A DNA stretch of 64,000 nt from the NCBI GenBank assembly GCA_963662545.2, contig CAXXLL010000002.1, positions 576,001-640,000 of the forward strand. Direction: 5' to 3'. The stretch is from Gammaproteobacteria bacterium (GTDB lineage Bacteria > Pseudomonadota > Gammaproteobacteria > Ga0077536). Shown piece after piece: positions 36,966 through 57,289 of the stretch. The notes below the pieces were generated by a model. It did no database searches, was not told where the DNA came from, and saw only the letters and a program-made list of their open reading frames with translations. The translations under genes and the position numbers were made by a program. Positions within the stretch are counted from its first letter, which is position 1; each line of letters starts with the position of its first letter.

Positions 36966-36987
36966 CGTCGCGATCGATGATCGCTAT

Positions 36988-37061
36988 GGGTCGATAGCCG
37001 CCTCCTCGCGGCAGCGCAGCACCTTTCCAAATCACGTCTGCAATGCGCTCATAAGCGGTCG
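36988..37061 (+). repeat. 74-bp conserved repeat, copy a
   Basis: GGGTCGATAGCCGCCTCCTCGCGGCAGCGCAGCAC-N9-TCACGTCTGCAATGCGCTCATAAGCGGTCG. Confidence 0.9.
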
Positions 37062-37246
37062 ACAAGTTCCCTGAAGCGTCGAGTCGAGAGGGTACGGCTG
37101 CAGTCGGCCAGGGGACGAAACCGCTATCGCGGTAGTGGTTAGCGAGGTCGTGGCGGAGTTGTAGTCAGTTCAGTTAGCAAGATGGGCCCTCCCTGTGTTG
37201 AGGTTGTTATCGCCAAACAACGACCAACAACACAGGAGACAAGCCC

Positions 37247-38131
37247 ATGACCCAGTCTAACAAAACCATCAGCCCGTTGTACGTCAACGCATGATCGACG
37301 ACATGACGTTGCGTCAGCTGCAGGAGAAAACGCAGACCGGATATCTGCGTTCCGTCAAACGCTTGACGAAGTTTCTGGGTCGCTCGCCGGATACGCGCGT
37401 CAGCCGAAGACCTGCGCGCGTTTCAAAAACAGTTGGTTGAACACGGCGCGTCGAGCGCGACCATCAATGCCACGATCCGCGGTCTACGGTTCTTCTTCGA
37501 GACCACCTTGGAACGCCCAGCGGCACTCAAACGGATGAGTCCGGTGCGGGTGCCGGAGCGCTTGCCGGTAGTCTTGAGCGTTGCAGACGTCACCCGCTTA
37601 CTAGACGCCGCGCCCAATCTGAAGTCGAAAGCCGCGCTGTCGGTGGCCTACGGTGCCGGCTTATGCGCCAGCGAAGTCTGCCACCTCAAAATCACCGACA
37701 TCGACAGTGAACGGATGATTATCCGGGTCGAGCAGGGTAAAGGTTCGCGCGACCGTCAAGCGATGCTCTCGCCCGCTTTGTTAGGTTTACTGCGCGCTTG
37801 GTGGCGCGACGGTCATCGCCGCGGCAAGATGCTCCCCAAGGGTTGGCTGTTCCCCGGCAGGGATCCCGTTGACCCGCTCTCACCTCGTCAACTCAATCGC
37901 ATGTGTCACTTCGCCGCGGCCACCGCCGAGTTGGATAAACAGATCTCCATGCACACCCTACGCCACAGTTTCGCGACGCACTTGCTCGAACAGCAGATCG
38001 ATATCCGGGTCATCCAGGTATTACTTGGCCACAAGAAGCTGACCACCACGGCGCGCTATGCCCATGTCGCAACGAAGGTGTTGAGCGACGTACAAAGTCC
38101 CCTCGACCGACTGAGCTTACCGACGCCGTAA
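37247..38131 (+). pseudogene. tyrosine recombinase with 5' frameshifts and catalytic R-to-C change (GLCASE)
   Basis: Closely similar to the intact 51660-52541 gene; indels near 37280 and 37395; HTLRH and LGH..Y motifs present. Confidence 0.85.
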
Positions 38132-38132
38132 C

Positions 38133-39289
38133 GTGGCGCGGCCACCGCTCGAGGTGGCAGATATTTTTAGACGCGACGGCGCGACCTGGCGTCAAGCGCA
38201 TGCCGGTCATATCAGCCTCGGCCAACTCAAGGTCATGTCTGCCATCGAACACTGCCGCACCGAGGCGCTCGGCGGGCACCTGTTGCATTGCGAGCCGTGC
38301 GATGCAGAGCGTATTGCCTATAACTCGTGCAGGAACCGCCATTGTCCGAAATGTCAGGGACGTAAAGCAGCGCAATGGCTCGAACACCGTCAAGCAGAGC
38401 TGTTGCCGGTCGCGTATTACCATATCGTGTTCACCCTACCCGCACTGATCGCCGAGTTTGCCTATCAGAATAAAGCCGTGGTCTATGACCTGCTGCTTCA
38501 GAGGTGTCTGCTGCAACGCTCTCCACCATCGCCGCCGATCGCAAACACCTGGGCGCCCAGATCGCAATGACCTCGGTGTTGCATACCTGGGGCTCGGCAC
38601 TCACCCATCATCCGCATGTCCATTGCATCGTGCCCGGCGGCGGACTCGATGGCGAGACCTGGGTGCCGTGCAAACGGGGGTTCTTCCTGCCGGTACGGGT
38701 GTTGTCGCGACTGTTCCGGCGCTTGTTTCTGGAGCGGCTCCACCAGGCACACCGTGACGGGCAGCTACACTTCTGCGGTGACTTGGCGACTCTCGCCAAC
38801 CGCGCATCGTTCGACCAGTATCTGGCACCATTGGCGCAAACGGATTGGTTCGTCTACGTCAAACAACCCTTTGCCGGACCCCAAGCGGTGCTGGCTTATC
38901 TGTCGCGCTACACCCACCGCCTCGCCATCTCCAACCATCGGCTCATCGCCCATGATGCGCGTGGCGTCACCTTCCAATGGCAGGACTATCGCAGCAAACG
39001 CCGGGTGCGCTACCAACCCATGACGCTCGCCACCGATGAGTTCATCCGGCGCTTCCTGAACCACGTCTTACCCAGGGGCTTCCATCGCATCCGTCATTAC
39101 GGCTTGCTCGCCAATCCGGTGCGACGCGATAACCTGGCCCGCTTGCGCCGAGCACTCGATATGCACCACGAGCCCGACGTCGAAACACAACCAATTACGA
39201 CACCTTCGCCGACCTTCGTGTGTCGAACCTGTGGCGCGCCCTTACAGATCGTCGAGATCCTAAACCCGAGAACTCGGTCACCGCCATGA
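38133..39289 (+). pseudogene. IS91-family rolling-circle transposase, frameshifted near 38500
   Basis: Zn finger (CRNRHCPKC), HPHVH (HUH), YLSRY (Y2), RIRHYG split over two frames. Confidence 0.88.
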
Positions 39290-39689
39290 CATCGGCTTCT
39301 ACTGACAACAATGACAGGCAGCACGCAGCGGTGTTGGCGATCTCTTATTGCCTCAGCCGTGGCAGACACCCGAACCGCGCGATCAAAACCAACCGATCAC
39401 TCGCTAAAACCGCTCTCAAAAGCATCGATAGCGCCGACATCGGACTTCGAATCGCCGCGCACCACCACACCGTCGACCCACTGCCCTAAACAATCCCCAT
39501 AGCCACGCCCCGCGGTTTCCTCCCCTGGGCGTTATCGAACACCCGCCTCAACGCTGTCGCAGAACCGCGCCCTTGTGCCGTTGCGGGTGTCCAATAACCC
39601 TAACCATGAGCGGTCATAAACATGAAGCGACGAGTTTCTACTCTCACTCCCCACATTCTGGATCGCTGAAACTTCCGACACATGAACGC

Positions 39690-40238
39690 TCACCGGCAGC
39701 TGCTTGACCTGTACTTAACAGGAAGCGTACCACCGCGGCAATCCCACCTAACCCTAGCGTCCTCAATGGACGGTGTGAGCACGATAGTGTGGCTATCACA
39801 GATTTCAACCAAAGTGATGGTTATTACTCCTTGCTCACCTACGGAGACTGAATCAGTCCAGTAACTACTGATCTCTCCAGGGGCAGCCAACTCTGCTTGC
39901 TCGTTACTCGAAGGTAGTTTGCCATGACGCGCAAAATACTCGCTGACAGCGTTTTTACCAGCGCTTGCGAGCGATAGGCTCTCGGTAAACACTTCACGAA
40001 CGAACGGGAGTTGGCTTTGCAAGTACATCGATAGCACCAACGCTACGACGGGAAAGACAAATGCGAGCCCGATGGAAAGGCGATTATGGTTTTTGATTGC
40101 TTCGCGAACTTTCGGCGACACGAATGAAACGAGTACAGACAGAATGCCGAGTGCGAAAGCAATTAGGGCCGTCCACCCGAAGAAACTTGACAAGAAATCG
40201 ATGACTCGCAGATTTTCGGGAATGCAAATTTTGTACAT
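39690..40238 (-). CDS. pilin-domain membrane protein lacking the prepilin N-terminus
   Basis: Two TM segments then SLASAGKNAVSEYF..G.LPSSNEQA..GVITIT..WDC..KYRSSSCR type IVa pilin head; no GFTLIE. Confidence 0.75.
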   Translation of the reverse strand: MYKICIPENLRVIDFLSSFFGWTALIAFALGILSVLVSFVSPKVREAIKNHNRLSIGLAFVFPVVALVLSMYLQSQLPFVREVFTESLSLASAGKNAVSEYFARHGKLPSSNEQAELAAPGEISSYWTDSVSVGEQGVITITLVEICDSHTIVLTPSIEDARVRWDCRGGTLPVKYRSSSCR

Positions 40239-40388
40239 GCCGGATGGTTCTCAATGCGCGTGGAATAAGGAATCATATCCTGATTCTGAATTGGTGCCGA
40301 AGAGCTGATGCAAAAGATGCTACAACCGTGTGGTCGCCCGTGTGTCGCAGTCGAACCTATGGATTCCTGCAACCGCGAAGTCCTAATT

Positions 40389-40462
40389 GGGTCGTCAGCA
40401 GCCTCATCGCGACAGCGCAACACTGCTCTGGATTACGTCTGCAATGCGCTCGTAAGCGGTCG
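40389..40462 (+). repeat. 74-bp conserved repeat, copy b
   Basis: GGGTCGTCAGCAGCCTCATCGCGACAGCGCAACAC-N9-TTACGTCTGCAATGCGCTCGTAAGCGGTCG. Confidence 0.9.
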
Positions 40463-40939
40463 TCGCGCCAGCTTAATATTCGCTACGAGCGCTGAGTTCC
40501 GCTCGTGGCCGAGGCTGCGTCCGGACGTCACGTACAAGCAAAAAGAGATCCGACGACGCGGATTCCTTGTTACCAACGATATAAATTTGTTTACCCGGCT
40601 TCGCCTCACCGTGGTTCGAGGCATTGTGGTAGCGAAGAGCAAAGTCCTTCTCCACGTTCGGTCCAAAACCGCTCACGTGTTTTATTCGCCCGGCAGGCGA
40701 TCGATACGCGAGAATGTTGAGATCACGGCGGATGTCGAAGAGTTAAGCCGTTCTTTTGAACAATGTCCGCGCAGAGAAAAGCTTTTTGGCGATGCCGGGC
40801 GGTCGTCGGTCCGGAAGGTGCGGCGGCGCGGTTACAACCACAAGGCGGCCCAGCGGATGAAGCATGCTTTCTCCCGGGGACGTTCGGTGATGCGAGGCGT
40901 TCAGGAGCCGGCGCCGCTGCCAATGGATTGCATCCCCCT

Positions 40940-42916
40940 TCACTCATCGCGCCCTGTCCCTGCCTTGAAGCCCCGTAACCAGGCACTCGCCTCGCTCGCC
41001 AGGGTCCAACGATCGTCCGGGCCGAGGCCGTCGGGCCCAAAACGGTAACGCTGGTGCAGTTCGGCGAGGCGGCGAAGCGCTGCTGCATCGACCTCGGCGC
41101 CGAAACGGGCGGCGGCGCGTTCAATCCATGCGTGCATCGGTTCGTCGCCGCGCCGCCGGGCGCCGGCGGTCTGAAGCCGCTGCTCGATCTGGTAGAACTC
41201 CGAATCCGCACCCGGCCAGACGGTTCGCGCCGCCACGGCGGACCGCCGGCGGCCAGTGCGCCGGTGCCACAAGAACCACGCGGTGAGCGCGCACGCCATC
41301 GACGCAGCGCCGTAAGACACCCGCCGCGTCGCGATCCCGAACTGCGGCATCTCCCAGGTCCGCCAGCCATACAGCAACCACGAGAAGAGATCGCCGAGCG
41401 GCTCTAACAGCGAGGCGGTCTCATCCTCGACCGTGACCCAGATCGGCGGCGTGGTGTCGACGTCGATCCAGACGCCGTCGATGTAGGCGCGCGCCCAGGC
41501 ATGTGCATGGCGCTTGCGCACGACATAGCCTTCATCAACCAGGCGCCGCTCCTGCACTGAGAAGCCGGTCGCGTAGCGAGCCGGTATACCGGCCGCGCGC
41601 AGCAGGAGGGTCGTCGCGGTTGCAAAGTACTCACAGTGCCCGGCGCGCGAGACCTCGAGGAAGTGGCGCAGCGCCCCGCCCTCCGCTTCGATCGGTCCCT
41701 GGTAGAGCGAGTATGCGAAGCCCTCGAAGAAGTAACCGCGGATGGCTTCGAGGGCGGCACTCGGAGACATGGCATCGAGACCGAGATCCCGGACCACCAG
41801 CGAGAAGAGCGCACGATCGCCTTTGGTGAGATCGCGATCTTGCACAGTCGGTGCCGCCGTGAACGATCGGCCCGGTGATGCGATGGCGGTATAGGTGACT
41901 GTCCCCGCAGCGTCGTGCGCCTCGACCGCGCCGAGCGGATTACGCTTCAGCTGCCCGACCAGTAAACCTTCCACACGGTGGGTCCCGCTCGGCAGCGACA
42001 GCACGCCGACACGGCCCTTGAGATACTCGGAAATCGACACCGCCGATCCGCCGGCTGCGCCGTTCGCGATCTGCCAGGTAGCTTCATCCTCGCCGTGCGG
42101 CACGGATTCGAGTGCCGCGTCGCGCGCATTCCAGTTGCCGTACCGGTACTCGTTGTAGCTCGCCCGGTGCAGCAGTCGCGGCCGAATCTCGGGTCCGAGG
42201 TATTTGACGCGGAGTAGGATCTTGTCCGAAAGCTTGAGTTTGCCGATGTGGCCGATTTCGGTGCGGGTGCGGTAGGGATCGGTGCGCGATCCGGATATAT
42301 TGACGAGGTTCGCCCCCAGCGAAACGATGGTTGCCTGCAGCGCGCTGAGCCCGAGGTGGCCGGCATAGCCCAGGGCGACCGCGACCACAATGAGCGCCGC
42401 CCATGCGAGACCCGCGTACTGCCGCGGCCGCCTCGTCCACAACGCCCCGGTGACGAGCAACGCAAGGCCCGGGTAGAACCACACCGAGTACTCGTAGACG
42501 GCACTGCCCGCGAGCAGGCACACGGCGAAATACGGAAACTCGAGCCTGAAGCTGCGCCCGGATGTGGCGCTGGGTAAACGCCTCAGCAAAGGCAGTGCAT
42601 AGAGCGGCACACTGCCGCGCCGCGACAGGCCCTGAGCGACGAGGAGCGGCGCCAGCACTACGGGCAGCCACTGCACCAGTCGGATGATAGCGTCGCGCAT
42701 CGCGAGCGCGGTCAGCAGATACACCGCGAGGCCGAGTACGGCGAGCACACACGCCATGCCGATGCGGCGGAAGTGCTCATCAGATACATCGACGTTCGGG
42801 CTGGTCAGGCGCGGCCCGATCACGGCGAGGACGAGCACCGCGGCGAGCGGTAGCAACGTCGTCTGATAGCCCCAGAACAGGATCGCGCCCCCGAGCAGGA
42901 TCGAGGCCGCCGTCAC
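40940..42916 (-). CDS. membrane transglutaminase-like protein (TgpA-like)
   Basis: Multi-TM N-terminus; GHCEYFAT, GIPARYATGF, HAHAWA, DTTP (Cys-His-Asp). Confidence 0.9.
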   Translation of the reverse strand: MTAASILLGGAILFWGYQTTLLPLAAVLVLAVIGPRLTSPNVDVSDEHFRRIGMACVLAVLGLAVYLLTALAMRDAIIRLVQWLPVVLAPLLVAQGLSRRGSVPLYALPLLRRLPSATSGRSFRLEFPYFAVCLLAGSAVYEYSVWFYPGLALLVTGALWTRRPRQYAGLAWAALIVVAVALGYAGHLGLSALQATIVSLGANLVNISGSRTDPYRTRTEIGHIGKLKLSDKILLRVKYLGPEIRPRLLHRASYNEYRYGNWNARDAALESVPHGEDEATWQIANGAAGGSAVSISEYLKGRVGVLSLPSGTHRVEGLLVGQLKRNPLGAVEAHDAAGTVTYTAIASPGRSFTAAPTVQDRDLTKGDRALFSLVVRDLGLDAMSPSAALEAIRGYFFEGFAYSLYQGPIEAEGGALRHFLEVSRAGHCEYFATATTLLLRAAGIPARYATGFSVQERRLVDEGYVVRKRHAHAWARAYIDGVWIDVDTTPPIWVTVEDETASLLEPLGDLFSWLLYGWRTWEMPQFGIATRRVSYGAASMACALTAWFLWHRRTGRRRSAVAARTVWPGADSEFYQIEQRLQTAGARRRGDEPMHAWIERAAARFGAEVDAAALRRLAELHQRYRFGPDGLGPDDRWTLASEASAWLRGFKAGTGRDE

Positions 42917-44223
42917 AGCGCAGCCAGCCCCTGCTGGATGTCGGCGGTGCGCAGCACGTGCAGCGACCCCGCGTCCGGTTCTATCTCGATGTCGGCGTCG
43001 CTGATCACCAGAACCTTGAGCGGCAGGCCGCGCGCCTGTAGGTCGTCGACGATGTCGCGGCGCGGCGTGTCCCAGCGCAGCAGGATGAGGATGCAGCTGC
43101 TGAGGACGGCGAGGCGTTCGAGCACGGCCTCGTGTAGCTCGCGAAAAGGCTTGTCCGTGCAGGCCTCGACGCCGGCCAGGATCTCGAGCATGCCGACGGC
43201 GTGCAGCTGGCCAATCCCCGCGGTGAAGGTGTAGGCCTCGGCGCCGACGAACATGAGGTCGAGCAGGTTTTCCTGCGTCTCGATGGTACAGGCGAACGAC
43301 GCGGCGACGGCCACGGCTTCCTCGAAGACGGTCTCCTCGTGGACGGCCGAGAAGGTGTCGAGCACCAGTGCGTGGCGTTCGAAGAACTCGTCTTGATATT
43401 CCTTCACGACCGGCCGGCCGACCCGCGCGAAGCTCTTCCAGTGGATCTTCTGCAGCGGATCGCCCGCGCGGTAATCGCGCAGACCCACGAACTCCTCGGT
43501 ATCGCCCTTCGAGGCCGCTAGCGTGACGCCGCCATGCTGGTAGATCCGTGTTCCCGGCAGTTCGAGTTCGGGCAGCGCATAGCGTTTCGGGAGAACCAGC
43601 AGGGAACCCTTGAGCGGCGCGCGCGAAAGCGCGTAGAAGATTCCGAGCGGATCAGACTTCGCCAGGGCCACGGCGTCGAACTCAAGGATCCCGCGGTGGG
43701 ACGGGGTGAGCTCGTATTTAATATCGACGTCGTCACCGGGGCCGAGGATGCCGATCGGGCAGGGCTTCGTCTCCGCCACCTGCCTGCGCGAGAGCAGCGC
43801 GCGCCAGCGGGCGAGCACGGACGCGCGCGGGGCGTCGCCGCCTTTCGTCTGACGAAACTCCGCGTAGGTCGGGCGCGGGTCGATGAGCTCGTCGACGAGA
43901 GCGAGCGAGGTGTGCGCGGTCTGATCGTCGTTGTGCACGCGGATGCGGTAGCTCACCGGCTCGCCGATGGTGGCAAAGGGCGGCAGCTCGCGTGTGGCAT
44001 GGAAGCGCGTTCGCAAAAATAGCTGCGCAACGAACGCAACGAAAATGACCGACGCGATGAGCGTGAAGATCTGATAGGCCAGCGTGAGTTCGGTATCGAT
44101 TCCTATCGCAGCCGTGACCAGCAGGCCCGCGAAGAAGAACCGCCCTGTCACCGTGAGGCGCCGCCGCGCCCACGGGTTGACGCCAGAAATAAAGCGCAAA
44201 AGCCGGTACGTCAGCGCCTGCAT
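42913..44223 (-). CDS. DUF58 domain protein
   Basis: DPLG, EFVGLRDYRAGDPLQKIHWKSFAR..VKEYQ. Confidence 0.92.
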   Translation of the reverse strand: MQALTYRLLRFISGVNPWARRRLTVTGRFFFAGLLVTAAIGIDTELTLAYQIFTLIASVIFVAFVAQLFLRTRFHATRELPPFATIGEPVSYRIRVHNDDQTAHTSLALVDELIDPRPTYAEFRQTKGGDAPRASVLARWRALLSRRQVAETKPCPIGILGPGDDVDIKYELTPSHRGILEFDAVALAKSDPLGIFYALSRAPLKGSLLVLPKRYALPELELPGTRIYQHGGVTLAASKGDTEEFVGLRDYRAGDPLQKIHWKSFARVGRPVVKEYQDEFFERHALVLDTFSAVHEETVFEEAVAVAASFACTIETQENLLDLMFVGAEAYTFTAGIGQLHAVGMLEILAGVEACTDKPFRELHEAVLERLAVLSSCILILLRWDTPRRDIVDDLQARGLPLKVLVISDADIEIEPDAGSLHVLRTADIQQGLAAL

Positions 44224-44240
44224 GGGATGGTCCCGTCGCG

Positions 44241-45200
44241 TCAGGCCGGGAGCGGGTGTTCGTCCATGAGATCCTCGAGGATCGCCTCCGACGATCGACC
44301 CGAGAACCGTGATTTTGGATCGACCGCCATGCGGTGCGCGATAACGGGCGCGATCATCTCACGCAGGTGATCGGGCATGACGAAATCCGACCCGTCGATC
44401 AGCGCCAGCGCCCGCATCGCGTTGAAGAGCGCAATGGATGCACGCGGACCCGTTCCCATCTGCACCGACGCATGCTCGCGGGTCGCCCGCACGATCGACA
44501 CCGCGTAGCGCTGCAGCTCCTCGCTGATGTGGACGTCGCGTACGGCCGATTTCAGCGCCACCACGTCCTCGACCGAGACACAGGCGCCAAGCGCATCGAG
44601 CGGGTGTGAACGCGCCTGCCCGGTGACGACCGCGAGCTCCGCATCAAAGTCGACGTAGCCGAGACTCAGACGAATAGCGAAGCGGTCCATCTGTGCTTCC
44701 GGCAACGGGTAGGTGCCGCGGAACTCGACCGGATTCTGAGTGGCGATCACGAAGAAGAGGTCAGACAGCTGATAGGAGCGCCCCTCGACGCTGACCTGAC
44801 CCTCAGCCATGGCTTCGAGCAGCGCGGATTGCGTCCGCGGCGACGCACGGTTGATCTCGTCGGCGAGGAGGATATCGGTAAACACGGGGCCTTCGCGAAA
44901 ATTGAAGACCTGCTCGCGCGGGTCGAAAACCGAGACGCCGAGGATGTCGGAGGGCAGCAGATCGGGCGTGAACTGCACCCGCTTAAAGCCGGCGCCGACC
45001 GACTTGGCGAGGGCCTTGGAGAGCGTAGTTTTGCCGGTGCCCGGGTAGTCTTCCAGAAGCACGTGACCGCCGCTCGCGAAGGCGGCCACGATCTTGCGGA
45101 GGGATGCGGTCTGGCCGGTGATAACGGTCTCGACGTTAGCAATGATCTTGGCGGCGATTAGCTGTGCCGTCTGAATCGTCGTCGCGGTTGTGTCGTCCAT
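44241..45200 (-). CDS. moxR: MoxR-family AAA+ ATPase
   Basis: GHVLLEDYPGTGKT, RVQFTPDLLPSD, LADEINRASPRTQSALLEAM, GTYPLPEAQMDRF. Confidence 0.95.
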   Translation of the reverse strand: MDDTTATTIQTAQLIAAKIIANVETVITGQTASLRKIVAAFASGGHVLLEDYPGTGKTTLSKALAKSVGAGFKRVQFTPDLLPSDILGVSVFDPREQVFNFREGPVFTDILLADEINRASPRTQSALLEAMAEGQVSVEGRSYQLSDLFFVIATQNPVEFRGTYPLPEAQMDRFAIRLSLGYVDFDAELAVVTGQARSHPLDALGACVSVEDVVALKSAVRDVHISEELQRYAVSIVRATREHASVQMGTGPRASIALFNAMRALALIDGSDFVMPDHLREMIAPVIAHRMAVDPKSRFSGRSSEAILEDLMDEHPLPA

Positions 45201-45246
45201 GGTCCGGGTTCCCTGTCAGATTGGGGACAGTATATGGGGAATAAAC

Positions 45247-45440
45247 GGTGTCGGAGTTGACTTATTTGACTAACATATAGCCGTATTGGCGCCGCCTATC
45301 CTAGTATCCTAGGGGGCAAACCACGTTTTACACGGTGCCGCGCGTTTTCACGGTCCCGACAGCGGCCCGGCGCTCTTAGTCAATTAAGTCAATTCCGGCA
45401 CGCAATTCTCGTTCAAGTCAATTAAGTCAACTCCGGCACC
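45247..45440. repeat. 25-bp inverted/direct repeat cluster (REP- or MITE-like)
   Basis: GGTGTCGGAGTTGACTTATTTGACT (45247) is inverted at 45378-45401 and 45416-45440 (AGTCAATTAAGTCAAyTCCGGCAC). Confidence 0.75.
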
Positions 45441-45745
45441 CGATTCCTATCACCGAAGACGAGACGTAGCCCAAAATCGCCCAACGATTACCAAGAAAAT
45501 CCAACCATGGATATGTCAAGCGCAGACGAATGGAAGCGCCTACAGGCCGATATAGAAATAGCCCGGCAAGTCATTATTGCCCTGCGCTGGCTGATGGAAG
45601 ATACGGCGCCACAGTCATCGATGGATGCGAGTGGGGAGGTGTTGGATAGGCTGGGTGAGTATTCGCCAACTCGTGCTGGTGCGTAATACGAACCATCGCA
45701 AAGGCGGCGAGCTGCTAAAGGCGAATGGGTTTGGTGTACCCGGAT

Positions 45746-46060
45746 CTATTTATCGCCAGAAAAATCCAACCGATCTCGCAGTTTTTCAAGTTCCGGCTTC
45801 ATAAGCTCGCATCTCCGAGCGTATGGAGTCCTTCCTTTCCTTGGTTTTGCAAGATCGGAAATGGATTGAAGTGCGGTGAACATAATCAGAGCGGTTTCCC
45901 ACAACTTGTGCTCGATAGAATCGAGATTCGGCAATATGTTGATGGACATTGGAAATCCATCATCGCCATATGACACGCTGTCTTCTAAATGTTGCAAATT
46001 TGCGTGTACAGCATTGCTGTAGACGTTGTAATACAAATAGAGTCTGGGCACCTCGCCCAC
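45746..46060 (-). pseudogene. hypothetical protein fragment (DUF5677/HEPN-like C-terminus?)
   Basis: YxxxSxxVH motif (YNVYSNAVHAN) in an AT-richer block; no good start. Confidence 0.3.
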
Positions 46061-46387
46061 TCTGGCGTCTTGCTATCGAAAAACAAAAGCGACACATGCG
46101 TCGGATTGGAAAAGCGCCGTTACGGCGTTTTCAGTATGTGGGGACGTGGAAAGATTTACCACGTCAACCGACACGAAAGGCTACCCCGTAATGGCCCCAA
46201 ATCACCCCTATTCACCCCACCCCACCGAGACATCCACCCCGACCCAGGAGTAACCCCCACCCTGTCCTGATTAGGCCGATACGCACCCCGAAATAGGGGC
46301 TTTCTGGAGATTAATTACCGGCTACGCAATTCGGCGAGTGTAAAGAATCCTAGAAAATCGGGCAGCGGAGCGATTTATTGCCATAGA

Positions 46388-47206
46388 ATGTTTCGGGATA
46401 GACTAGATAAGCCCCAACTCGAGAGCGTCGGAATTCTGGCCACGAAACGCACAAACAGCAGTCGCCTAGCGTCCCCGCTAGTATTGACGTCGATTATGTC
46501 CGCGTTGATTGCTGTCTTATTGTTCGACGGCGCATCAGCTGCCACCCTCGTTGACAAACCTTGGGACCCGACCGTTTCGCCGAACGGATGGCTTGCCAAC
46601 CAAAGTCAATTTGGAGGACCGAACTTAACGGCAGATCCTTTTGCGTTAGTTAATGGGGCGACGGTAACAAAGGTCGCGTGGTGGGGCTTTGGGACGCTAG
46701 GCGCCGAAGGGTTCGGTTTTTTCGGGACTGCAACTTGGGACGTTCGATTCTTCGAGATGCAGGAAGGCTCGCCGCCATTTCCCGCTGCCAACGCCCTTTA
46801 TATTTACGACACTGGCCTAATTAGCGGCGCTCTCGTTCAATTTAACCCAGGCGGTGGGGCACCCATCCTGCAAACGTTCAGGTGGGAGGTAGATATTCCT
46901 AGTGTTTTTTTGCCTTCGGGCGACTATGCGATTAGCTTGGCGATTACCGATCACAACGGCATCTGGAATTCCGCGACCGAAATCGACGACGTATTGTGGA
47001 CTCGCTTTTTTTTCGGAGATACGTGGCTAGGCCCCATTGATTTCGAAGGATCTGCCGGTCGCCGGGACAATGCGTTTGTTTTATACGGTATTTCTGTTCC
47101 AATCCCCGCGCCGCTCGGTCTTTTCCTATCCGGTCTAATAGGGGCTATGGGACTTGGTCACCGAAAGCGCATAGACGAACCCGGCAAGTACACCCGGGAA
47201 CAATAG
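46388..47206 (+). CDS. exported protein with a PEP-CTERM/VPLPA-CTERM-type sorting signal
   Basis: Signal-like ..LIAVLLFDGASAAT; C-terminal VPIPAPLGLFLSGLIGAMGLGHRKR; true start probably downstream of 46388. Confidence 0.75.
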   Translation: MFRDRLDKPQLESVGILATKRTNSSRLASPLVLTSIMSALIAVLLFDGASAATLVDKPWDPTVSPNGWLANQSQFGGPNLTADPFALVNGATVTKVAWWGFGTLGAEGFGFFGTATWDVRFFEMQEGSPPFPAANALYIYDTGLISGALVQFNPGGGAPILQTFRWEVDIPSVFLPSGDYAISLAITDHNGIWNSATEIDDVLWTRFFFGDTWLGPIDFEGSAGRRDNAFVLYGISVPIPAPLGLFLSGLIGAMGLGHRKRIDEPGKYTREQ

Positions 47207-47256
47207 CGAATTGGGTATCAGGTCTTGCCTTTTGTCCGTGATGTCTGTTCAGGGTC

Positions 47257-47416
47257 CAGACTGTGTGAAAACTCAATAATACGACGCCGAAAGTAAAAAA
47301 TTCCCCACCAGCATAGTAGTTAAGCACCATGAAAAGGGATCAGCACATCGCATTAATCCACTTCCGAGTGTCGGTTCCCCACTTTTGAAAAACGCAAATA
47401 GTTTTCACACAGTCTG
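47257..47416. mobile_element. 160-bp MITE (IS1182-like ends), copy 1, GGTC target duplication
   Basis: IR CAGACTGTGTGAAAACT / AGTTTTCACACAGTCTG; GGTC at 47253-47256 and 47417-47420. Confidence 0.88.
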
Positions 47417-47489
47417 GGTCGTTAGCCGCCGCCTCGCGGCAGTGCAGCACTGGTAATAGTTACGTCTGCAATCCCCTCGTAAGCGGTCG
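47416..47489 (+). repeat. 74-bp conserved repeat, copy c
   Basis: GGGTCGTTAGCCGCCGCCTCGCGGCAGTGCAGCAC-N9-TTACGTCTGCAATCCCCTCGTAAGCGGTCG. Confidence 0.9.
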
Positions 47490-48261
47490 TCCTGTTGTTT
47501 TAAGTGTCGCGCTCCAAGCCCATTTCGGCTTTCGGCCAGAGGACTAAACCGCTCGCGCGGTAGGGGGAGGTTTCACCAGGCGTTAGCGATGGATTGACGG
47601 GAAGGGTCTGTCCCGTGTTGATGTTGGTTTGCGACATGCAACTCAACACAAGGAACAGACCCATGACCCAGAACAAGCATTCTATCAGCCCGTTGCGTCA
47701 ACGCATGCACGACGACATGCGCCTTCGTAAGCTCTCTGAGAAAACACAGACAGCCTATATCCGTGCGGTCAAGAATTTCACCCGCTTTCTCGCCCGTTCT
47801 CCCGACACCGCCGGTAGCGAAGACCTGCGGCGTTATCAACTTCACATGGTCTCCACCGGCGTGTCTCGCACGACCATCAACGCCACCATCACCGGTTTGC
47901 ACTTTTTCTTTGAGATCTCCCTCGAGCGGCCCGATGCGATGAAACGGATGAGTACCGTGCACGTGGAACGTAAGCTCCCGGTGGTCTTGAGCGGTGAGGA
48001 AGTTGCGCGCCTGTTACAAGCCGCGCCCGGCATCAAGTACCAGGCGGCGTTGTCGCTCGCCTATGGCGCCGGCCTTCGCGCCGGCGAGGGAGTCATGCTG
48101 AAAGTCACCGATATTGACCGTGAGCGCAAGCTCCTGCGCGTCGAGCAGGGTAAGGGACGCAAGGACCGCTACGCTATGCTCTCACCGACCTTGCTCAAGG
48201 TGTTGCGCACCTGGTACCGCAGCGCTGCATCGCAGGGCAAGATGTGGCCCCACGGCTGGCT

Positions 48262-49650
48262 AGGAGTTATAACTGAATCTGGTGTTTGAGCGAATTGAAT
48301 AAAGGCGGCGTATCTGGTTGAAATGTTGTTACCAAGCAGCAAGCCAACCAAAGAGGATACGCCACCATGAGAGAGAGTAACGTTGTTGAATTATCAGGTC
48401 GAGAAGGAATACCAGATCCGTTGACGGAGGTTTTGAGAAACGGTGCACGGGCGCTGATTGAGCGAGCAGTTGAAAGCGAGCTGGCAGAGTATTTGGCGCA
48501 GTATTCAAGCCATCGCACGGCGGACGACAAAGCAGGTGTGGTTCGCAACGGCTATTTGCCGGAACGCCAGTTGCAGACGGGCTTGGGGACGGTCACGGTC
48601 AGGATACCGAAGGTTCGTTCGAAGCTCGGCGAGCCGGTGACCTTCCGTTCAGCGCTGGTGCCGCCGTATGTGCGCAAGACAAGAACCTTGGAGGCGGCCG
48701 TGCCGTGGCTGTATTTGAAGGGCGTTTCCAGTGGCGAAATGGGCGCTGCGCTGGAAGTTTTGTTGGGGCCGCAGGCGAAGGGCCTGTCGGCGAGCACAGT
48801 GTCGCGCTTGAAGCAGGTGTGGGCGCAAGAATACCGCGACTGGTGCGAGGGGCGATTGGACCAAGACCGCTGGGTGTAGGTGTGGGCGGACGGTGTCTAC
48901 AGTGGCCTGCGGGCGGAGCACACGAAGCTGTGTGCGTTGGTGGTGATCGGCGTCAATGAGCGAGGCGAGAAGCGTTTTTTGGCGATGGAGGATGGTGTGC
49001 GGGAGTCCACGCAGAGCTGGCGCGAGGTGTTGCTGAAATTGAAGTCACGCGGGATGAATATTCCCAAGCTGGCGATCGGGGACGGTGCCATGGGCTTCTG
49101 GGCCGCACTGGAGGAAGTCTACGGTGAGACCCGCCAGCAACGCTGCTGGATGCACAAGACGATGAACGTGCTGAACTGCCTACCGAAGTCAGCACAGGCC
49201 AAAGCCAAGCAAGCCCTGCACGCGATCTGGCAGGCCGCGACAAAGGCCGACGCCGAGAAGGCGTTCGAGCTGTTCCTCAAGACCTATGAACCGAAGTATC
49301 CCAAGGCGACCCTGTGCCTACAGAAAGACCGTGAGGAGTTGCTGGCGTTCTATGATTTTCCGGCACCACATTGGCAAAGCATTCGCACGAGCAATCCGAT
49401 TGAATCCACCTTCGCTACGATCCGGCACCGGACCCGGCGCTCCAAGGGCGGTCTCTCTCGGGACGGCATGCTCCATATGATGTTCAAGCTGGGGCGGTGT
49501 GCGCAGAAGAATTGGCGACGCCTACGTGGATTCGACTACCTGGCCAAGGTGATTACTGGAGTTAAATTTGAAGATGGTATCGAGGTGACAAGGGTCAATC
49601 AGGTCGCCGCTTGATTCAACCGCCTGAACACCACTTTTGACAATAACTCC
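48262..49650 (+). mobile_element. IS256-family insertion sequence
   Basis: IRs GGAGTTAT..TGGTGTT / AACACCA..ATAACTCC; target duplication GGCTGGCT (48254-48261 and 49651-49658). Confidence 0.92.
48367..49614 (+). pseudogene. IS256 transposase with in-frame TAG at 48877
   Basis: RNGYLPER, YLKGVSSG, WV*VWADG, IGDGAMG, QRCWMHK, RTSNPIES in one frame. Confidence 0.9.
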
Positions 49651-49963
49651 GGCTGGCTGTTCCCGGGGCAGAACCCCGTCAACCCTCTGACCACCCGCCA
49701 GCTCAACCGGGCCTGTCATGCGGCGGTGGACCTAGCGACCATCGATAAGCGCGTGTCGCTGCATACGCTGCGCCATTCATTCGCAACTCATTTACTCGAG
49801 CAGGGGGTCGACATCCGTGTGATCCAGGTGCTGCTCGGACACCAGAAGCTCGAGACCACCGCGCTGTACTCCCAGGTCGCCATGCGCACGCTTCGTGAGG
49901 TCGTGAGCCCACTGGAACATCTCACCCTGGAGTTGAGACCGCCCGCCTGACCCGGCGGGTGAG

Positions 49964-51157
49964 GTGTCTCGGCAACCGCTCGAGGTCGCGGATATCTTCC
50001 GCGCCTACGGTCCGGCTTGGCGTCATGCGCACGCCGGACACCTCAGTCTCGGGCAGCTGAAGGTCATGTCGGCCATCGAGCGCTGTCGTAGCGCAGCGCT
50101 CGGCGGCCACGTTGTGCACTGCGACGCCTGTGACCACATCGAGATCGCCTACAACTCCTGCCGTAACAGGCACTGCCCGAAGTGCCAGGGCGCAGTGGCC
50201 AGGCAATGGCTTGCCGCGCGCGAAGCCGAGCTGCTACCGGTCGCGTACTTCCACGTCGTGTTCACGGTGCCGGCAGAGATCGGCAACCTCGCCTATCAGA
50301 ACAAGGCCGTTATCTACAACCTCTTATTCAAAGCCGCCGCCGAGACCTTGCTCACCATCGGGGCCGATCCCAAACACCTCGGGGCACGCCTGGGGCTCAC
50401 CGCCGTGCTGCATACCTGGGGCTCGGCCATGACCCATCATCCCCATCTGCACTGCATCGTGCCTGGCGGCGGGCTCTCGCTCGACGGCGTGCGTTGGCTC
50501 GCCTGTCGGCCCAACTTCTTCTTACCGGTGCGGGTGCTCTCGCGGTTGTTCCGACGCCTGTTCCTCGGCCAGCTGGGTGAACTCCACGCGGGCGGACAGT
50601 TGGCCTTCTTCGGCCAATACCAGGGACTCGAAGACCCGCACGCCTTCGCCGAGTTCCTCACTGCGTTGCGTAAACGCGAGTGGGTCGTTGATGCCCGCCC
50701 GCCCTTCGCCGGACCCGCCGCGGTGCTCGAATACCTCGCCCGATATACCCACCGCGTCGCCATCGCTAACTCGCGTCTCATCACCTTCGACCAACAACGC
50801 GTGAGCTTCAAGTGGAAGGACTATCGCGCCCAGCAGGAGAACCGCTACAAGACCCTGTCGCTCGAGACCGGCGAGTTCATCCGCCGCTTCCTCATCCACG
50901 TCCTACCCCACGGCTTCCATCGCATTCGCCATTACGGGTTGTTCGCAAACGGCGGGCGCACCGAGAACCTCGCAAAGGTCCGCGCTCTGCTCGGCATCGA
51001 GACATCCCAAGATGTCAACGACAACGACAACACTGATGAGGCGACACCCGACTGGCTACGCTGTCCGTCCTGTGGAGGTGCGATGCACATCATCGACACC
51101 TTCGAGCCCGGTCACGCGCCCTGTGCACCACCGCACCGCGGAGGCGACCCACCTTGA
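49964..51157 (+). CDS. IS91-family rolling-circle (Y2/HUH) transposase, intact
   Basis: YNSCRNRHCPKC, HVVFT, HPHLH, YLARY, RIRHYG, C-terminal CPSC. Confidence 0.93.
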   Translation: MSRQPLEVADIFRAYGPAWRHAHAGHLSLGQLKVMSAIERCRSAALGGHVVHCDACDHIEIAYNSCRNRHCPKCQGAVARQWLAAREAELLPVAYFHVVFTVPAEIGNLAYQNKAVIYNLLFKAAAETLLTIGADPKHLGARLGLTAVLHTWGSAMTHHPHLHCIVPGGGLSLDGVRWLACRPNFFLPVRVLSRLFRRLFLGQLGELHAGGQLAFFGQYQGLEDPHAFAEFLTALRKREWVVDARPPFAGPAAVLEYLARYTHRVAIANSRLITFDQQRVSFKWKDYRAQQENRYKTLSLETGEFIRRFLIHVLPHGFHRIRHYGLFANGGRTENLAKVRALLGIETSQDVNDNDNTDEATPDWLRCPSCGGAMHIIDTFEPGHAPCAPPHRGGDPP

Positions 51158-51659
51158 CCCTCGACCGTTCGAACTCGCCAGCCCACCAGCCCACAAATCG
51201 CCGCTTTACCACCGGCAACGTTACCGTCTTGCTTGGCGCCGTGACGAGACCACATAGCGGTACCGATCCCGCTCCTCAACGTCCGGTCACCCACCCACCT
51301 CATTGCACGCTGACCCGTTCTTGCCCGACACACCGCTTGCCGTTGGCTACCGATCATATCAATCCGAACAACGCCACCCTCAAATCCCCATAGCACCGTG
51401 CCGACCAACGCGCCGGCGTTCTTCTCCCGCGGTTTCCTCCCTTGAGGCTTGTCAGACGCCTGCCCCCACCCTCTCGACCCAGTCCGTCCACTGTCTACGG
51501 CAGGCATCTGACAACCCTTAACAGAGGACGAAACCGCTATCGCGGTAATGGTCGGCGAGGTTGTGGCGGAGGTGTTGTAAATTGAGTTAGCAAAATGGGC
51601 TCACCCTGTGTTGAGGTTGTTATCGCCAAACAGCAACCAGAAACACAGGAGATAAGCCC

Positions 51660-52541
51660 ATGACCCAGTCTAACAATTCCATCAGCCCGTTGCGTCAACG
51701 CATGATTGATGACATGACCTTGCGTCAGCTCCAGGAGAAAACGCAGAGCGGCTATCTGCGCTCGGTGAAGCGCTTGACGAAGTTTCTGGGTCGTTCACCC
51801 GATTCGGCGTCAGCCGAAGACCTGCGCGCGTTTCAAAAACATCTGGTGGACCAGGGGGTATCGAGCGCGACCATCAATGCGACGATCCGCGGACTGCGGT
51901 TCTTCTTCGAGACCACCCTGGAGCGCCCGCAGGTACTGAAACGGATGAGTCCGGTGCGTGTGCCGGAGCGCTTGCCGGTGGTCTTGAGCGTGGCAGACAT
52001 CACCCGCTTATTGAACGCTGCCCCCGATCTGAAGTCGATGGCGGCGCTGTCGGTGGCCGATGGTGCCGGGTTACGCGCCAGCGAAGTCTGCCACTTGAAG
52101 ATCACCGACATCGACAGCGAACGGATGCTTATCCGAGTGCAACTCGGCAAAGGTGCTCGAGATCGACAAGCGATGCTCTCGCCGGCCTTGTTGCAACTAC
52201 TGCGCGCCTGGTGGCGCGAGGGTCATCGCCGCGGCAAGATGCTCCCCAATGGCTGGCTGTTCCCCGGCGTTGACCCGGTCGACCCCCTCTCGACACGCCA
52301 ACTCAATCGAATGTGTCATTTCGCTGCGGCGACGGCCGCGCTGGAGAAACGGCTCTCCATGCACACCTTACGCCACAGCTTCGCGACACATTTGCTCGAG
52401 CAGCGGGTCGATATCCGGGTCATCCAAGTCTTACTCGGCCATAAGAAGCTGACCACCACCGCACGCTACGCCCATGTCGCGACCCAGACCTTGAGTCAAG
52501 TACAAAGTCCTCTGGACCGGTTGAAGTTACCCAAGCCGTAG
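51660..52541 (+). CDS. site-specific tyrosine recombinase (N-terminal SAM-like domain plus catalytic domain), intact
   Basis: GLRASE, GKG, HTLRH, LGH, ARY: complete R-K-H-R-H-Y set; AGGAG RBS. Confidence 0.93.
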   Translation: MTQSNNSISPLRQRMIDDMTLRQLQEKTQSGYLRSVKRLTKFLGRSPDSASAEDLRAFQKHLVDQGVSSATINATIRGLRFFFETTLERPQVLKRMSPVRVPERLPVVLSVADITRLLNAAPDLKSMAALSVADGAGLRASEVCHLKITDIDSERMLIRVQLGKGARDRQAMLSPALLQLLRAWWREGHRRGKMLPNGWLFPGVDPVDPLSTRQLNRMCHFAAATAALEKRLSMHTLRHSFATHLLEQRVDIRVIQVLLGHKKLTTTARYAHVATQTLSQVQSPLDRLKLPKP

Positions 52542-52542
52542 C

Positions 52543-53521
52543 GTGGCGCGGCCACCGCTAGAGGTGGCAGACATTTTCAGACGCGACGGCCAGACCTGGC
52601 GTCAGGCGCACGCCGGACATATCAGCCTGGCTCAACTCAAGGTCGCGTATTACCACGTCGTGTTCACCTTACCGGCACTGATCGCCGATCTCGCTTACCA
52701 GAATAAGGCCGTGGTCTATGATTTGCTGTTCAAGGTCTCTGCGGAAACACTCGCCACCATCGCCGCCGATCGCAAACACCTGGGTGCCCAGATCGGAATG
52801 ACCTCGGTGTTGCATACCTGGGGCTCGGCACTCACCCATCATCCGCAGGTCCACTGCATCGTCCCCGGGGGCGGACTCGATGGCGAGACCTGGGTGCCGT
52901 GTAAACGCGGGTTTTTCCTGCCGGTACGGGTGTTGTCGCGACTGTTCCGGCGTCTGTTCCTACAACGGCTCCACCAGGCACACCGTGACGGGCAGCTACG
53001 TTTCTTCGGTGACCTGGTGCATCTCGCCAACCCGACATCGTTCAACCGATACCTGGCGCCACTGGCGTAAACGGAGTGGTTCGTCTACGTCAAACAACCC
53101 TTTGCCGGGCCCCCAAGCGGTGCTCGCTTACCTGTCGCGCTACACCCACCGGGTTGCCATCTCCAATCATCGGCTCATCGCCCATGATGAACGCGGCGTC
53201 ACCTTCCAATGGAAGGACTATCGCACCAAACATTGTGTCCGATACAAACCCATGACGCTCGTCACCGATGAGTTCATCCGCCGCTTCTTGACCCACGTCT
53301 TACCCAAGGGGTTCCATCGCATCCGTCATTACGGCTTGTTCGCTAATCCCGTGCGACGCGATAACTTGACCCGCTTACGTCGAGCACTCGACACCCACGA
53401 CGAGCCCGACGTCGAAACAGAAACGATGACGGCGTCTTCACCGGCGTTCGTCTGTCGAATCTGTGGGGCGCCCTTGCAGATTGTCGAGATCCTCACCCCG
53501 AACATGAGAGCACCACCATGA
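52543..53521 (+). pseudogene. IS91 transposase with Zn-finger deletion, TAA at 53068 and a frameshift
   Basis: Against copy 1: 177-bp deletion at 52644, CAA-to-TAA change, extra base near 53110. Confidence 0.88.
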
Positions 53522-54131
53522 CGCCGGCTCCTACGACAAGCATGACCGGCAGCACGCAACAGCGTCGGCGAGCGCCTATTGCCTCAACTGTGTCAAACAC
53601 TCGAGCCGCCCCTTCAAAAGCCAACGACTACGCTAGAAAACGGCGCTCCCACCCATCGATGACGCCAGCATCCGACTCGAAAACGCCGCACACAACGACT
53701 TCTACGACCCGCTGCCCCCAACAATCCCCATAGCCACGCCCCCGCGGTTTCCTCCCCTGGGCGTTATCGAACACCCGCCTCACTGCCGTCACAGACCCTC
53801 ACCCTCGTGCCGTTGCGGGTGTCCAATAACCCTAACCAGGAGCGGTCTTGGTATTTGTCGTAAGGCCATGCAGCGTGAAGGCTTCGTGTTCCGGGCGGGG
53901 TCCCATGGCGATGCAGTCGTTGACGGAGCTGTCGAGGACCTGTGCGAGGCCATCGTCGTCGTGCGGTTCGAGGGCGAGATAGGTAGTATCCAGAGCGCGA
54001 ACCAACAGACCTGCACGTTCGAGGTGCTACCCCACCCGTTCGCTCAGGGTAAGCACGCGAAAAAGAACTCCACGAACTCGCGCACGCAATTCTCTGAGCG
54101 AAAAAGTGGTTTGCCTCTGGAATCAGACGTT

Positions 54132-54914: not shown

Positions 54915-55417
54915 GGTTACCCCTTTTGGTTTAGTTTTTGGTTCCCACACCGGAGTGCAGCGTTGGGTACTCTTGAAGCGTAGATGAGCTAAGCGCTGGG
55001 ATCTACAGTGTAGTGCCTCGGGCCTATTGTTCCGCCGATGCGACGAACGATAATGCAAATCCGTATATGAATCTCAGGACGACAACTGGAACGCGCATTT
55101 AAGGCACATGCAGGGTCCCTACCCCGCAGGTTCTGGCAGCAAGAAGCGTTTGGATCAGAACGCGAGTATAGAAGACGAATAACCCGCCTTATTGCGAGGT
55201 AGCATCCGTTCGCGGTAGGTGAGAATGACCGTCTGTGAAGCGTCCCGCGGTGTCGTTTCGCCGGCAATAAGCGCTGATCACGACGGGCGTTGCGGGTCTT
55301 ATCCTAGCTGAGGCCGAGCGTAGTCGCGGTCTTCGCTGGCGAGGCCTGGCATCCGTGCTTGGACCGGTATTGCAGTTCCGTCTCTCTGCATTACGAATCA
55401 GTGACGACGACCGCTTG

Positions 55418-55491
55418 GGGTCGGCAGCTGCCGAATCGCCGCAGTGCAACACCTGTAAGCATTACGTCTGCAGTCCCCTCGTAAGCGGTCG
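55418..55491 (+). repeat. 74-bp conserved repeat, copy d
   Basis: GGGTCGGCAGCTGCCGAATCGCCGCAGTGCAACAC-N9-TTACGTCTGCAGTCCCCTCGTAAGCGGTCG. Confidence 0.9.
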
Positions 55492-55802
55492 TGCAGTAGC
55501 GTTCAGTGGTGCGACTGTGGAGGGCGGCGGCTTACAGCTAGAAGCGGACGGCAAATTACGGGACCGGCATGGACCATGACGAGGAGATCTGAAGATAAAT
55601 CAGCGAATTTCCGTCGCCACAATCGGTGGCTGTTCCGTAATTCCTTCTGCGCGGGGCGGGCGCACGGAGCTGCGGTCGAAAACCGAATTGGATACACTGA
55701 TATCGCAAAGGCATGCCCGATTTGTGACTATGGACAAGATATCGAACCACTTACAACCCGCCGGACGCGACCCGCCCGGATCGGGTCCCGAGGAAACAAG
55801 CT

Positions 55803-56915: not shown

Positions 56916-57075
56916 CAGACTGTGTGAAAACTCAAAAATACGACGACGAAATAAAAATATTCCCCACCAGCATAGTTGTTATGCCCCTCGAATAGGGATC
57001 GGCATTTCAATTAGATCCAATTTCGAGGGTAGTTCCCCCACTTTTGAAAAATGAAAATAGTTTTCACACAGTCTG
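56916..57075. mobile_element. 160-bp MITE, copy 2, GGTC target duplication
   Basis: Same 17-bp IRs and length as 47257-47416, diverged interior; GGTC at 56912-56915 and 57076-57079. Confidence 0.88.
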
Positions 57076-57148: not shown

Positions 57149-57289
57149 GTACTTCCTGTACATAACAAGATGAAACAGGCTGACCAGGACAAATACAACA
57201 ACGGCTATGATGGTAAAAGGTTTCATCCTTCCCCTGTTATCTCATAACGTGGTCAATACTAAATTACTCCGGCCTTTTTTTATTTTGAG

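Follow-up and report, generated by a model that had tools for sequence, protein, structure and literature searches.

A putative 24-nt symmetric target for IS91-type elements that carry a tyrosine recombinase gene

Introduction

What decides where a mobile element comes to rest? The question is raised by a stretch of DNA from a gammaproteobacterium of the lineage Ga0077536 (GenBank assembly GCA_963662545.2, contig CAXXLL010000002.1, positions 576,001 to 640,000 of the forward strand). This 64,000-nt stretch, the window in what follows, contains three units in which a tyrosine recombinase gene (int) is followed by a gene for an IS91-type transposase (Y2, a two-tyrosine enzyme of the HUH type), and they lie at repeated sites. 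IS91-type elements, like the related ISCR elements, mobilise resistance and catabolic genes, and the role of the extra recombinase in one subgroup of them is unexplained. Canonical IS91 needs only GAAC or CAAG as a target. Insertion without target duplication, in a fixed orientation and with an element end that resembles the target are features of IS91, the ends of which mimic the target sequence.

An original prediction, made from the letters of the window, proposed that the elements are placed with respect to a repeated 74-bp sequence. Here we compare the junctions of these elements with those of relatives in many other genomes. On the evidence of the aligned flanks, this IS91 subgroup has a definable target of about 24 nt, which is not a canonical attC site (the recombination site of integron cassettes). 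We then consider which of the two enzymes is likely to read that target, and how the elements relate to the cassette arrays in which they are found.

Insertion junctions and the shared target

The three units in the window have the same gene order, the tyrosine recombinase gene first and the IS91-type transposase gene second, as judged from the open reading frame (ORF) listing and by direct reading. The same order is found in every complete copy, which sets these elements apart from the single-gene layout of the IS91 family. At its left end each window element has two variable bases and then GGAC(G/T)AAACCGC-N4-GCGGT, and the right end reads ...CCCTAACCA or ...CCCTTAACA.

The coordinates of the junctions, read directly, agree with the prediction that elements 1 and 2 begin 49 nt past repeats a and c. 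Repeat a starts at 36988, its 74-nt core ends at 37061, the hexamer CGGCCA ends at 37110 and element 1 begins at 37111; the corresponding positions for repeat c and element 2 are 47416, 47489, 47538 and 47539. Element 1 terminates in ...TAACCA at 39606 and is followed by TG-AGCGGTC. Element 2 terminates in ...TTAACA at 51523, and element 3 opens at 51524 with an identical left-end motif, so that the claim that one starts where the other ends is confirmed. Element 3 in turn terminates in ...TAACCA at 53838, followed by GG-AGCGGTC. Two further parts of the prediction can be kept. Insertion without target duplication is seen throughout, with flanking direct repeats at none of the genome's copies, and the notion of one exact insertion position holds to within about 2 nt, an ambiguity that arises because two bases are variable at each junction. 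Tandem stacking is also real, in that two different elements, 2 and 3, abut. Element 2 is only 65-70% identical to element 3 (and to element 1), whereas elements 1 and 3 share about 85% identity. Therefore, the abutting pair must reflect two events and not replication read-through. Among the non-tandem insertions of this genome that have a left flank, CGGCCA abuts the element in 5/5, and a sixth insertion abuts the end of another element. The shared insertion position in this genome is not chance.

Does the same hold elsewhere? An alignment search with three recombinases found 439 relatives among 599 candidate stretches, on contigs drawn from one genome per species. Their hosts are gammaproteobacterial metagenome-assembled genomes labelled Arenicellales or Gammaproteobacteria (80-85% identity), Variovorax, Paraburkholderia, Methylobacter and others, and the recombinase also matches 349 plasmid records. 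Public annotation describes the gene pair as 'site-specific integrase' and 'IS91 family transposase'. At 60 loci with a readable left flank the element start motif is the same, and the hexamer that precedes the two variable bases is CGGCCA in 15, GGGTCG in 10 and similar in the rest.

The target motif was drawn from 40 distinct insertions with both flanks, 34 of them in other genomes and six in this one. The flank consensus is about 24 nt long and two-fold symmetric, and reads GNCNGNT-NN-hexamer / element / NN-AGCNGNC. In the left arm, positions 1, 3, 5 and 7 are G, C, G and T in 29, 35, 30 and 21 of the 40 insertions. In the right arm, positions 1, 2, 3, 5 and 7 are A, G, C, G and C in 24, 26, 31, 30 and 31 of them. 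The conserved positions of the two arms are mirror images, and the cut lies at a fixed asymmetric point between them. The hexamer at the centre is CGGCCA here and GGGTCG, GCAGCG and others elsewhere. The left junction always retains the hexamer of the target, and the right junction always retains the last six bases of the element. Neither GAAC nor CAAG was found at the junctions of this genome's copies.

This motif takes the place of the 74-bp repeat. The original prediction had made targeting dependent on that repeat, but the 74-nt core was found in 0/79 foreign loci (best E-value 0.4), whereas the positive controls were found in 6/6 loci. In other words, homologous elements sit in these foreign loci with no 74-bp repeat upstream. 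Even in this genome, three of the six insertions lie in a different kind of site (type 2, described below).

The broader idea of a longer, structured site survives in part. The target is indeed far longer than the four bases of IS91, but the structure is unsupported. At the variable positions of the arms there is no covariation across the 40 insertions (3.28 versus 3.15 Watson-Crick pairs, with 2304/10000 shuffles as high), empty sites rebuilt from other genomes have no common fold (z from -3.5 to +1.9, with 24/31 loci folded), and the local 123-nt repeat has no consensus fold either (see below). With arms that are mirrored and yet do not covary, the target therefore reads as a protein-binding site and not as a fold; put differently, the motif seems to fit protein read-out of a dyad better. 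The prediction had left open whether the recombinase or a hairpin directs integration, and the symmetric arm-spacer-arm layout would favour the recombinase. The features of the window are collected in Table 1.

Table 1. Elements, sites and related features of the window (positions are those of the window).
Feature	Position	Strand	Details
Empty type-2 site	30740..30840	+	ends ...CGGCCA at 30829, then ACTC and the 3' arm of the outer stem
Site a, occupied	36977..37110	+	upstream box ATGATCGCT (36977-36985) and 123-nt unit GGGTCG...CGGCCA (36988-37110)
Element 1	37111..39606	+	2496 nt; int and Y2 genes both frameshifted
Right half of target a	39607..39615	+	TG and box AGCGGTC
Site b	40389..40511	+	123-nt unit ending TGGCCG; no Int+Y2 element
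Miniature inverted-repeat element	47258..47415		158 nt, in GGTC at the start of site c, 4-bp duplication; separate from the Int+Y2 element
Site c, occupied	47416..47538	+	123-nt unit ending CGGCCA
Element 2	47539..51523	+	2588-nt type carrying a nested insertion sequence (IS); total 3985 nt
IS256-family IS in element 2 int gene	~48264-49650	+	1387 nt; Transposase_mut split into two frames
Element 3	51524..53838	+	2315 nt; directly abuts element 2
Right half of target c	53839..53847	+	GG and box AGCGGTC
Site d, empty	55407..55549	+	upstream box, 123-nt unit ending CAGCTA at 55540, then GA and AGCGGAC
Fifth 123-nt unit	57075..57197	+	preceded by a second miniature element (56917-57074)

The two enzymes and the element ends

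The transposase consists of Zn_Tnp_IS91 and Y2_Tnp domains. It has the two parts expected of an IS91 enzyme, a two-tyrosine HUH transposase domain (PF04986, 219 bits) and an N-terminal zinc-binding domain (PF14319, 110 bits), and it scores 429 bits on the NCBIfam IS91 transposase equivalog NF033538, for which the cut-off is 125. Going by these matches, the elements are a subgroup of the IS91 family with a tyrosine recombinase gene upstream of the Y2 (HUH) gene.

The recombinase (Int) matches Phage_int_SAM_4 and Phage_integrase (PF13495, PF00589). Its best families are XerA, integron integrase, XerD and XerC, every score being below the family cut-off, and the nearest solved structures are XerA/XerC-like 4a8e, XerD 1a0p and IntI4 2a3v. 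It is not an IntI, since it reaches 164-174 bits on TIGR02249 against a cut-off of 265. Positions 3-178 and 238-315 of the integron-integrase model are matched and positions 179-237 are not; therefore, Int is without the IntI-specific insert. These comparisons indicate that the element recombinase belongs to the Xer/IntI clade. R, HxxR, H and Y residues are present in the translation of Int, and HPHVH and YLSRY in that of Y2; we take these to be the catalytic motifs of the two enzymes.

None of the three units in the window is intact (0/3). In element 2 the Y2 gene (49964-51157) is intact and encodes 397 amino acids (aa), and the int gene is split by an IS256-family IS. In element 3 the int gene (51660-52541) is intact with 293 aa, and the Y2 gene is frameshifted and has lost about 173 nt. 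The nested IS has 15 further full-length copies in the genome, and a 9-nt overlap of the flanking matches suggests that it made a 9-bp target duplication. The length of element 2 is explained by this IS, because uninterrupted copies measure 2588 nt. Intact copies of both element types are present elsewhere in the genome (C2:1616787-1619277, C3:6821-9408 and C3:920816-923403, where C2 and C3 are contigs of this genome, G000). The first of them, G000:C2:1616787-1619277, is 98% identical to element 1.

Does a hairpin have any part in this? A covarying hairpin does exist, as the idea of a hairpin guide would have it, but it lies in the right end of the element and not in the target. As drawn from element 2, where it occupies about 51449-51514, it has 15 pairs and stops 9 nt short of the terminus. 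Across 44 sequences 89.1% of the cells are paired, against 22-43% in controls in which the partner was slid. Six pairs show double changes, and the 50 double-change cells compare with 15.9 in shuffles (0/500 as high). The hairpin at the left end, ACCGC-N4-GCGGT, gives no covariation signal because it is invariant. The covarying hairpin argues for a single-stranded stage, of which Y2 would be the source.

The right end shows some irregularities in other genomes. At certain loci the terminus is repeated as an 8-14-nt stub behind the element (L029, ~6843-6862; L066, ~2655-2690). At others a 5'-truncated second copy or a second right end lies directly behind it (L006, 6858 onwards; L040, 6943 and 7063).

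A model of insertion and its main competitor

How might the two enzymes share the work? In the model that we put forward, and to which we would give an even chance, the Xer/IntI-like recombinase aims and joins one strand and Y2 makes a circular copy. Y2 would nick at the conserved ends, and rolling-circle replication would then yield a circular copy, probably in single-stranded form, with two hairpins as signals for Y2, the covarying one at the right end and the invariant one at the left. The recombinase would bind the symmetric target and exchange one strand only, at the right edge of the 6-nt centre. Replication would resolve the resulting junction, as in the insertion of integron cassettes or the integration of CTX phage at dif. 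The outcome would be integration in one orientation at a fixed point of the ~24-nt symmetric target. The enzyme that aims, the single-strand exchange and the circular intermediate are the parts that we infer.

Such a mechanism would account for the lack of duplication, for the retention of the target centre on the left and of the element centre on the right, and for the tendency of target and element end to agree only in the base just before the cut. That base is common to both in 31/40 insertions (A/A 18, G/G 10, C/C 3). The mismatches are G/A in seven cases and C/A in two, and the two C/A exceptions may be errors of the end-finding pattern. That each partner keeps its own centre at the junction fits one-strand exchange followed by replication. 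Moreover, tyrosine-recombinase core sites usually consist of an arm, 2 nt, a 6-nt centre, 2 nt and an inverted arm, with the junction at the edge of the centre, as here. A usable half-site would be re-created at each end of the inserted element, so that a second element can stack. Stacking as such follows from every model, because the left half of the target stays before the element and the right arm behind it.

What if Y2 needs no help? In this alternative the HUH transposase alone picks and cuts the target, with a longer recognition sequence than that of IS91, and the recombinase is an accessory that resolves tandems or cointegrates or acts in regulation. The lack of duplication, the fixed orientation and an element end that resembles the sequence before the cut (31/40 for the last base) are what such an enzyme would leave behind, and conserved hairpins near both ends are of the kind that HUH enzymes use. 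The duplicated right termini (L029, L066) and the 5'-truncated second copy (L006) look like slips of rolling-circle termination. However, a dyad target built as arm, centre and arm has no obvious use for a single-strand nickase, whereas it is usual for a tyrosine recombinase. Furthermore, Int is kept intact and adjacent across a widespread family. We regard action by Y2 alone as the less likely of the two.

Several observations nevertheless weigh against placement by the recombinase. An HUH enzyme could itself recognise the cut sequence, and the identity of the last base fits that too. The bases next to the junction vary between otherwise identical copies, with GA or AG on the left of the element-2 type and AA or TT on the right, and no simple single-cut model would predict them. 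The two junction-adjacent bases are the same on both sides in 11/40 insertions. We considered that these two bases are inherited with the element, come from the target or are duplicated, and none of these possibilities fits all copies. The element's own junction is spaced differently from the target: its arm-like 7-mer lies 11 nt from the cut, against 8 nt in the target. Nor can the 40 insertions be counted as independent, as elements and hosts are related. Public contigs break near both element ends and contain no circle junction, no joint that spans the entire element and no empty site, which is not informative on circles. Finally, no Int was found at E 1e-30 in two genomes of the same genus that bear the repeated sites; both are drafts, 89% and 95% complete.

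Repeated sites of the genome

The 74-nt core is the front part of a 123-nt unit, GGGTCG...CGGCCA, which we refer to as a type-1 site. The window was thought to hold four repeats, a to d, but it has six cores (starting at 36988, 40389, 47416, 55418, 57075 and 57992). A profile of four window copies has 113 matches in the genome, 106 of them nearly full length. The copies are clustered, in one orientation per cluster and at a spacing of 0.3-22 kb; all 38 cores between C2:612988 and C2:748948, for example, are on the + strand. At 103 distinct sites a recognisable CGGCCA-like end was present in 77, and it lay 49 nt past the core in 70/77. Therefore, the 49 nt belongs to the repeat and not to an insertion. 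Most units have an upstream box like ATGTCCGCT and, two bases on from their downstream end, an inverse box AGCGGACAT. The unit is present in 2/2 other genomes of the genus and in 0/38 further relatives searched.

Sites b and d had been described as empty equivalents. This is correct for d, but b has eight nt (AGGCTGCG) and not two between its hexamer and the downstream box TCCGGACGT. In this stretch behind the hexamer of site b (40512-40528), the first six bases of AGGCTGCG equal the terminus of the miniature element that targets GGCC, and may be an excision footprint. Such miniature inverted-repeat elements occur genome-wide in two subfamilies of 157-158 nt, each with a 4-bp duplication. One subfamily is always in the GGTC that opens the 123-nt unit and the other in the GGCC of the terminal CGGCCA. 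They home to the two quasi-symmetric ends of the sites that the Int+Y2 elements use. They were considered as cassette ends, an idea ruled out by their ordinary 4-bp duplications in GGTC or GGCC.

The 123-nt unit gave little indication of structure. No consensus fold was obtained on either strand (RNAalifold with DNA parameters, 28 clean sites), and there were no Rfam matches in window positions 30000-60000 at E 1. One conserved hairpin for the whole unit was rejected, since its two hand-drawn stems are paired in 51% and 46% of cells, not above shuffles. The two boxes of a site do not covary in 22 sites of this genome (5.73 versus 5.63 pairs, with 1600/5000 shuffles as high). One unit (G000:C2:2577044-2577117, compared with C2:670667) is without its 49-nt tail and the next 30 nt. 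The sequence breaks between the GCGGTCG that closes the core and a CGGTCG like it further downstream, a pattern that recombination at the internal box, too, might have left.

The second type of site does fold. Three Int+Y2 copies outside the window lie not behind the 74-nt repeat but behind a conserved stretch of about 95 nt that ends in ...GGCTTACGGCCA. It forms a long imperfect hairpin in which an internal loop separates the outer stem from the inner one, and the insertion point is on the 3' side of that loop. The DNA fold has -18.8 kcal/mol and a z of -1.9, with 8/200 shuffles as good, and only this type of site folds like an attC. Four empty copies are present, and one of them terminates at window position 30829. 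In at least three places (window 30044-30829, G000:C3:385309 and C2:1616786) the type-2 site comes after a gene that matches GIY-YIG weakly (E 1.5e-4, slightly short of the Pfam cut-off), and the remaining type-2 sites are preceded by the end of a second, unrelated gene.

Cassette arrays and the elements within them

In 3/3 cases inspected closely, cassettes that have neither int nor Y2 change their upstream neighbour exactly at the CCA insertion point; therefore, the Int+Y2 elements sit at cassette junctions. In one case a block of 793 nt, present at C2:76 kb and at C3:930 kb with 99.7% identity, starts directly after ...GCAGTCGGCCA, and the sites ahead of it are only ~48% alike in their variable part. 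Two further blocks, which the sister genome G001 has as well, begin after CGGCCA and after ...CCA, behind differing sites. With co-oriented sites and a change of neighbour at a fixed point of the site, these are cassette arrays. As far as the alignments go, both repeated site types of this genus, which also serve for the exchange of gene cassettes, have the target motif as their 3' module.

The arrays are distinct from the integrons of the same genome. There are two true IntI genes (C2:996723-997664 and C3:1527239-1528180), with 461-462 bits on TIGR02249 against the cut-off of 265. By a strict pattern, four canonical attC sites (ACCTAAC...GTTAGGT, ~110 nt) lie near the first and one near the second, and their sequences are unlike the 123-nt repeat arrays. 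The boxes of the target are GNCNGNT and AGCNGNC and not the RYYYAAC...GTTRRRY that closes the imperfect hairpin of an integron attC. No Int+Y2 copy was found within 35 kb of either intI. Crude ORFs of the arrays number 155 on one strand and 104 on the other, so that with this weak bias the arrays are not integron-like in that respect.

Tyrosine recombinases of two other families lie beside some arrays. Members of the first are short, about 200 aa, and 85-97% identical (C3:1447161-1447751, C3:352207-352860 and C2:486757-487386); the second has 299-445 aa (C2:73156-74055 and C3:884134-885441). Four repeat arrays (C2:75 kb, C3:355 kb, C3:887 kb and C3:1450 kb) have genes of these two families about 2 kb from their downstream end, directed towards the array.

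Perhaps the cassettes and the elements have more in common than a junction. We can imagine that the 123-nt units, together with the type-2 hairpins, serve as recombination sites for a second, IntI-independent cassette system, in which gene blocks of 0.6-9 kb are stacked in series and traded at the CCA point. The Int+Y2 elements would be its autonomous members, supplying the recombinase, and perhaps rolling-circle copying, in trans to gene cassettes. This proposal is speculative, and we think it much more likely to be wrong than right.

The converse would be that the elements are passive passengers, and that a host recombinase, either IntI or one of the array-adjacent tyrosine recombinases, moves all cassettes between the repeated sites. 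Gene cassettes free of int and Y2 do switch neighbours at the same CCA point, two tyrosine recombinase families do adjoin four arrays, and sister genomes have arrays in which no Int was found. However, the 34 foreign insertions, which are without the repeat, show the same junction motif and have their own conserved ends, and therefore the specificity travels with the element. In addition, the attC sites that belong to IntI here are canonical and different. Passive movement by a host enzyme is thus improbable.

Least credible of all is that the shared position is an artefact of segmental duplication and not the product of independent insertions: the genome does have large duplicated segments, and one element with its flank is common to the end of C2 and the start of C3, but sites a and c are unlike each other in the 49-nt part and on both sides, the DNA downstream of the three type-2 insertions differs, elements 1, 2 and 3 are mutually 65-85% identical and the same motif flanks relatives in many phyla, so that we reject it on the differing flanks.

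The C2 end (2590697-2591134) and the C3 start (9408 onwards) have the same element end and downstream DNA in inverted order, which could be either a large inverted duplication or an assembly effect. Array segments are duplicated among C2:2.58 Mb, C3:0.01 Mb and C3:0.91 Mb. Within the window, a 31-nt motif occurs twice in tandem, 38 nt apart, at 45378-45446, in the spacer upstream of a MoxR/DUF58/transglutaminase operon.

Comparison with known systems

The elements resemble the IS91 family (IS91, IS801, IS1294) in their transposase match, the lack of duplication, the fixed orientation and an end that looks like the bases before the cut. They differ from it in carrying two genes, with the tyrosine recombinase upstream, and in a target that is a symmetric motif of about 24 nt, not the tetranucleotide GAAC or CAAG of IS91. 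Here, a conserved target also abuts both element ends. ISfinder lists IS91-family members with an upstream integrase gene, such as ISShvi3. These have the identical gene pair, and presumably belong to the same group. One passage in the literature places ISShvi3 next to an attC site (PMC9229058). A literature search on ISAzo26 returned no description. In the literature searched, at the level of listings and abstracts plus one passage, there was no published description of a target rule or mechanism for the Int-bearing IS91 subgroup.

Integron cassettes and IntI offer a second comparison. Common features are a recombinase of the Xer/IntI clade, insertion at cassette junctions in co-oriented arrays, junctions compatible with single-strand exchange and a terminal hairpin. 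In contrast to integrons, Int here has no IntI insert, the sites have no RYYYAAC/GTTRRRY, the true attC sites are unused and the genes show little strand bias.

In CTX-type phages that integrate at dif (IMEX), a Xer enzyme joins a circle of folded single-stranded DNA to a symmetric site in the chromosome by exchange of one strand. The identity is limited to a few bases beside the cut, and tandem arrays form. The likeness is one of analogy only, as the element here encodes the recombinase beside an HUH transposase and the target is not dif. Homing to cassette recombination sites, again with one orientation, is also found in two other kinds of mobile element, the IS1111-attC elements and the group IIC-attC introns, but their enzymes are unrelated (a DEDD transposase and a reverse transcriptase). 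The clade described here has a non-attC target in a genome whose canonical attC sites stay free of Int+Y2 copies.

Implications

The target motif provides a sequence rule for finding the insertion sites of a family that is present in hundreds of genomes and plasmids. A defined 24-nt target, exact junctions and a covarying terminal hairpin also make the model of copying by Y2 and placement by Int testable. If it is true, these elements would be a hybrid of two transposition chemistries. If there is a second cassette system as well, Int+Y2 would move gene cassettes much as an autonomous transposon moves its non-autonomous relatives. The arrays of this genome also show that cassette-type arrays other than integrons exist, with parasites of their own.

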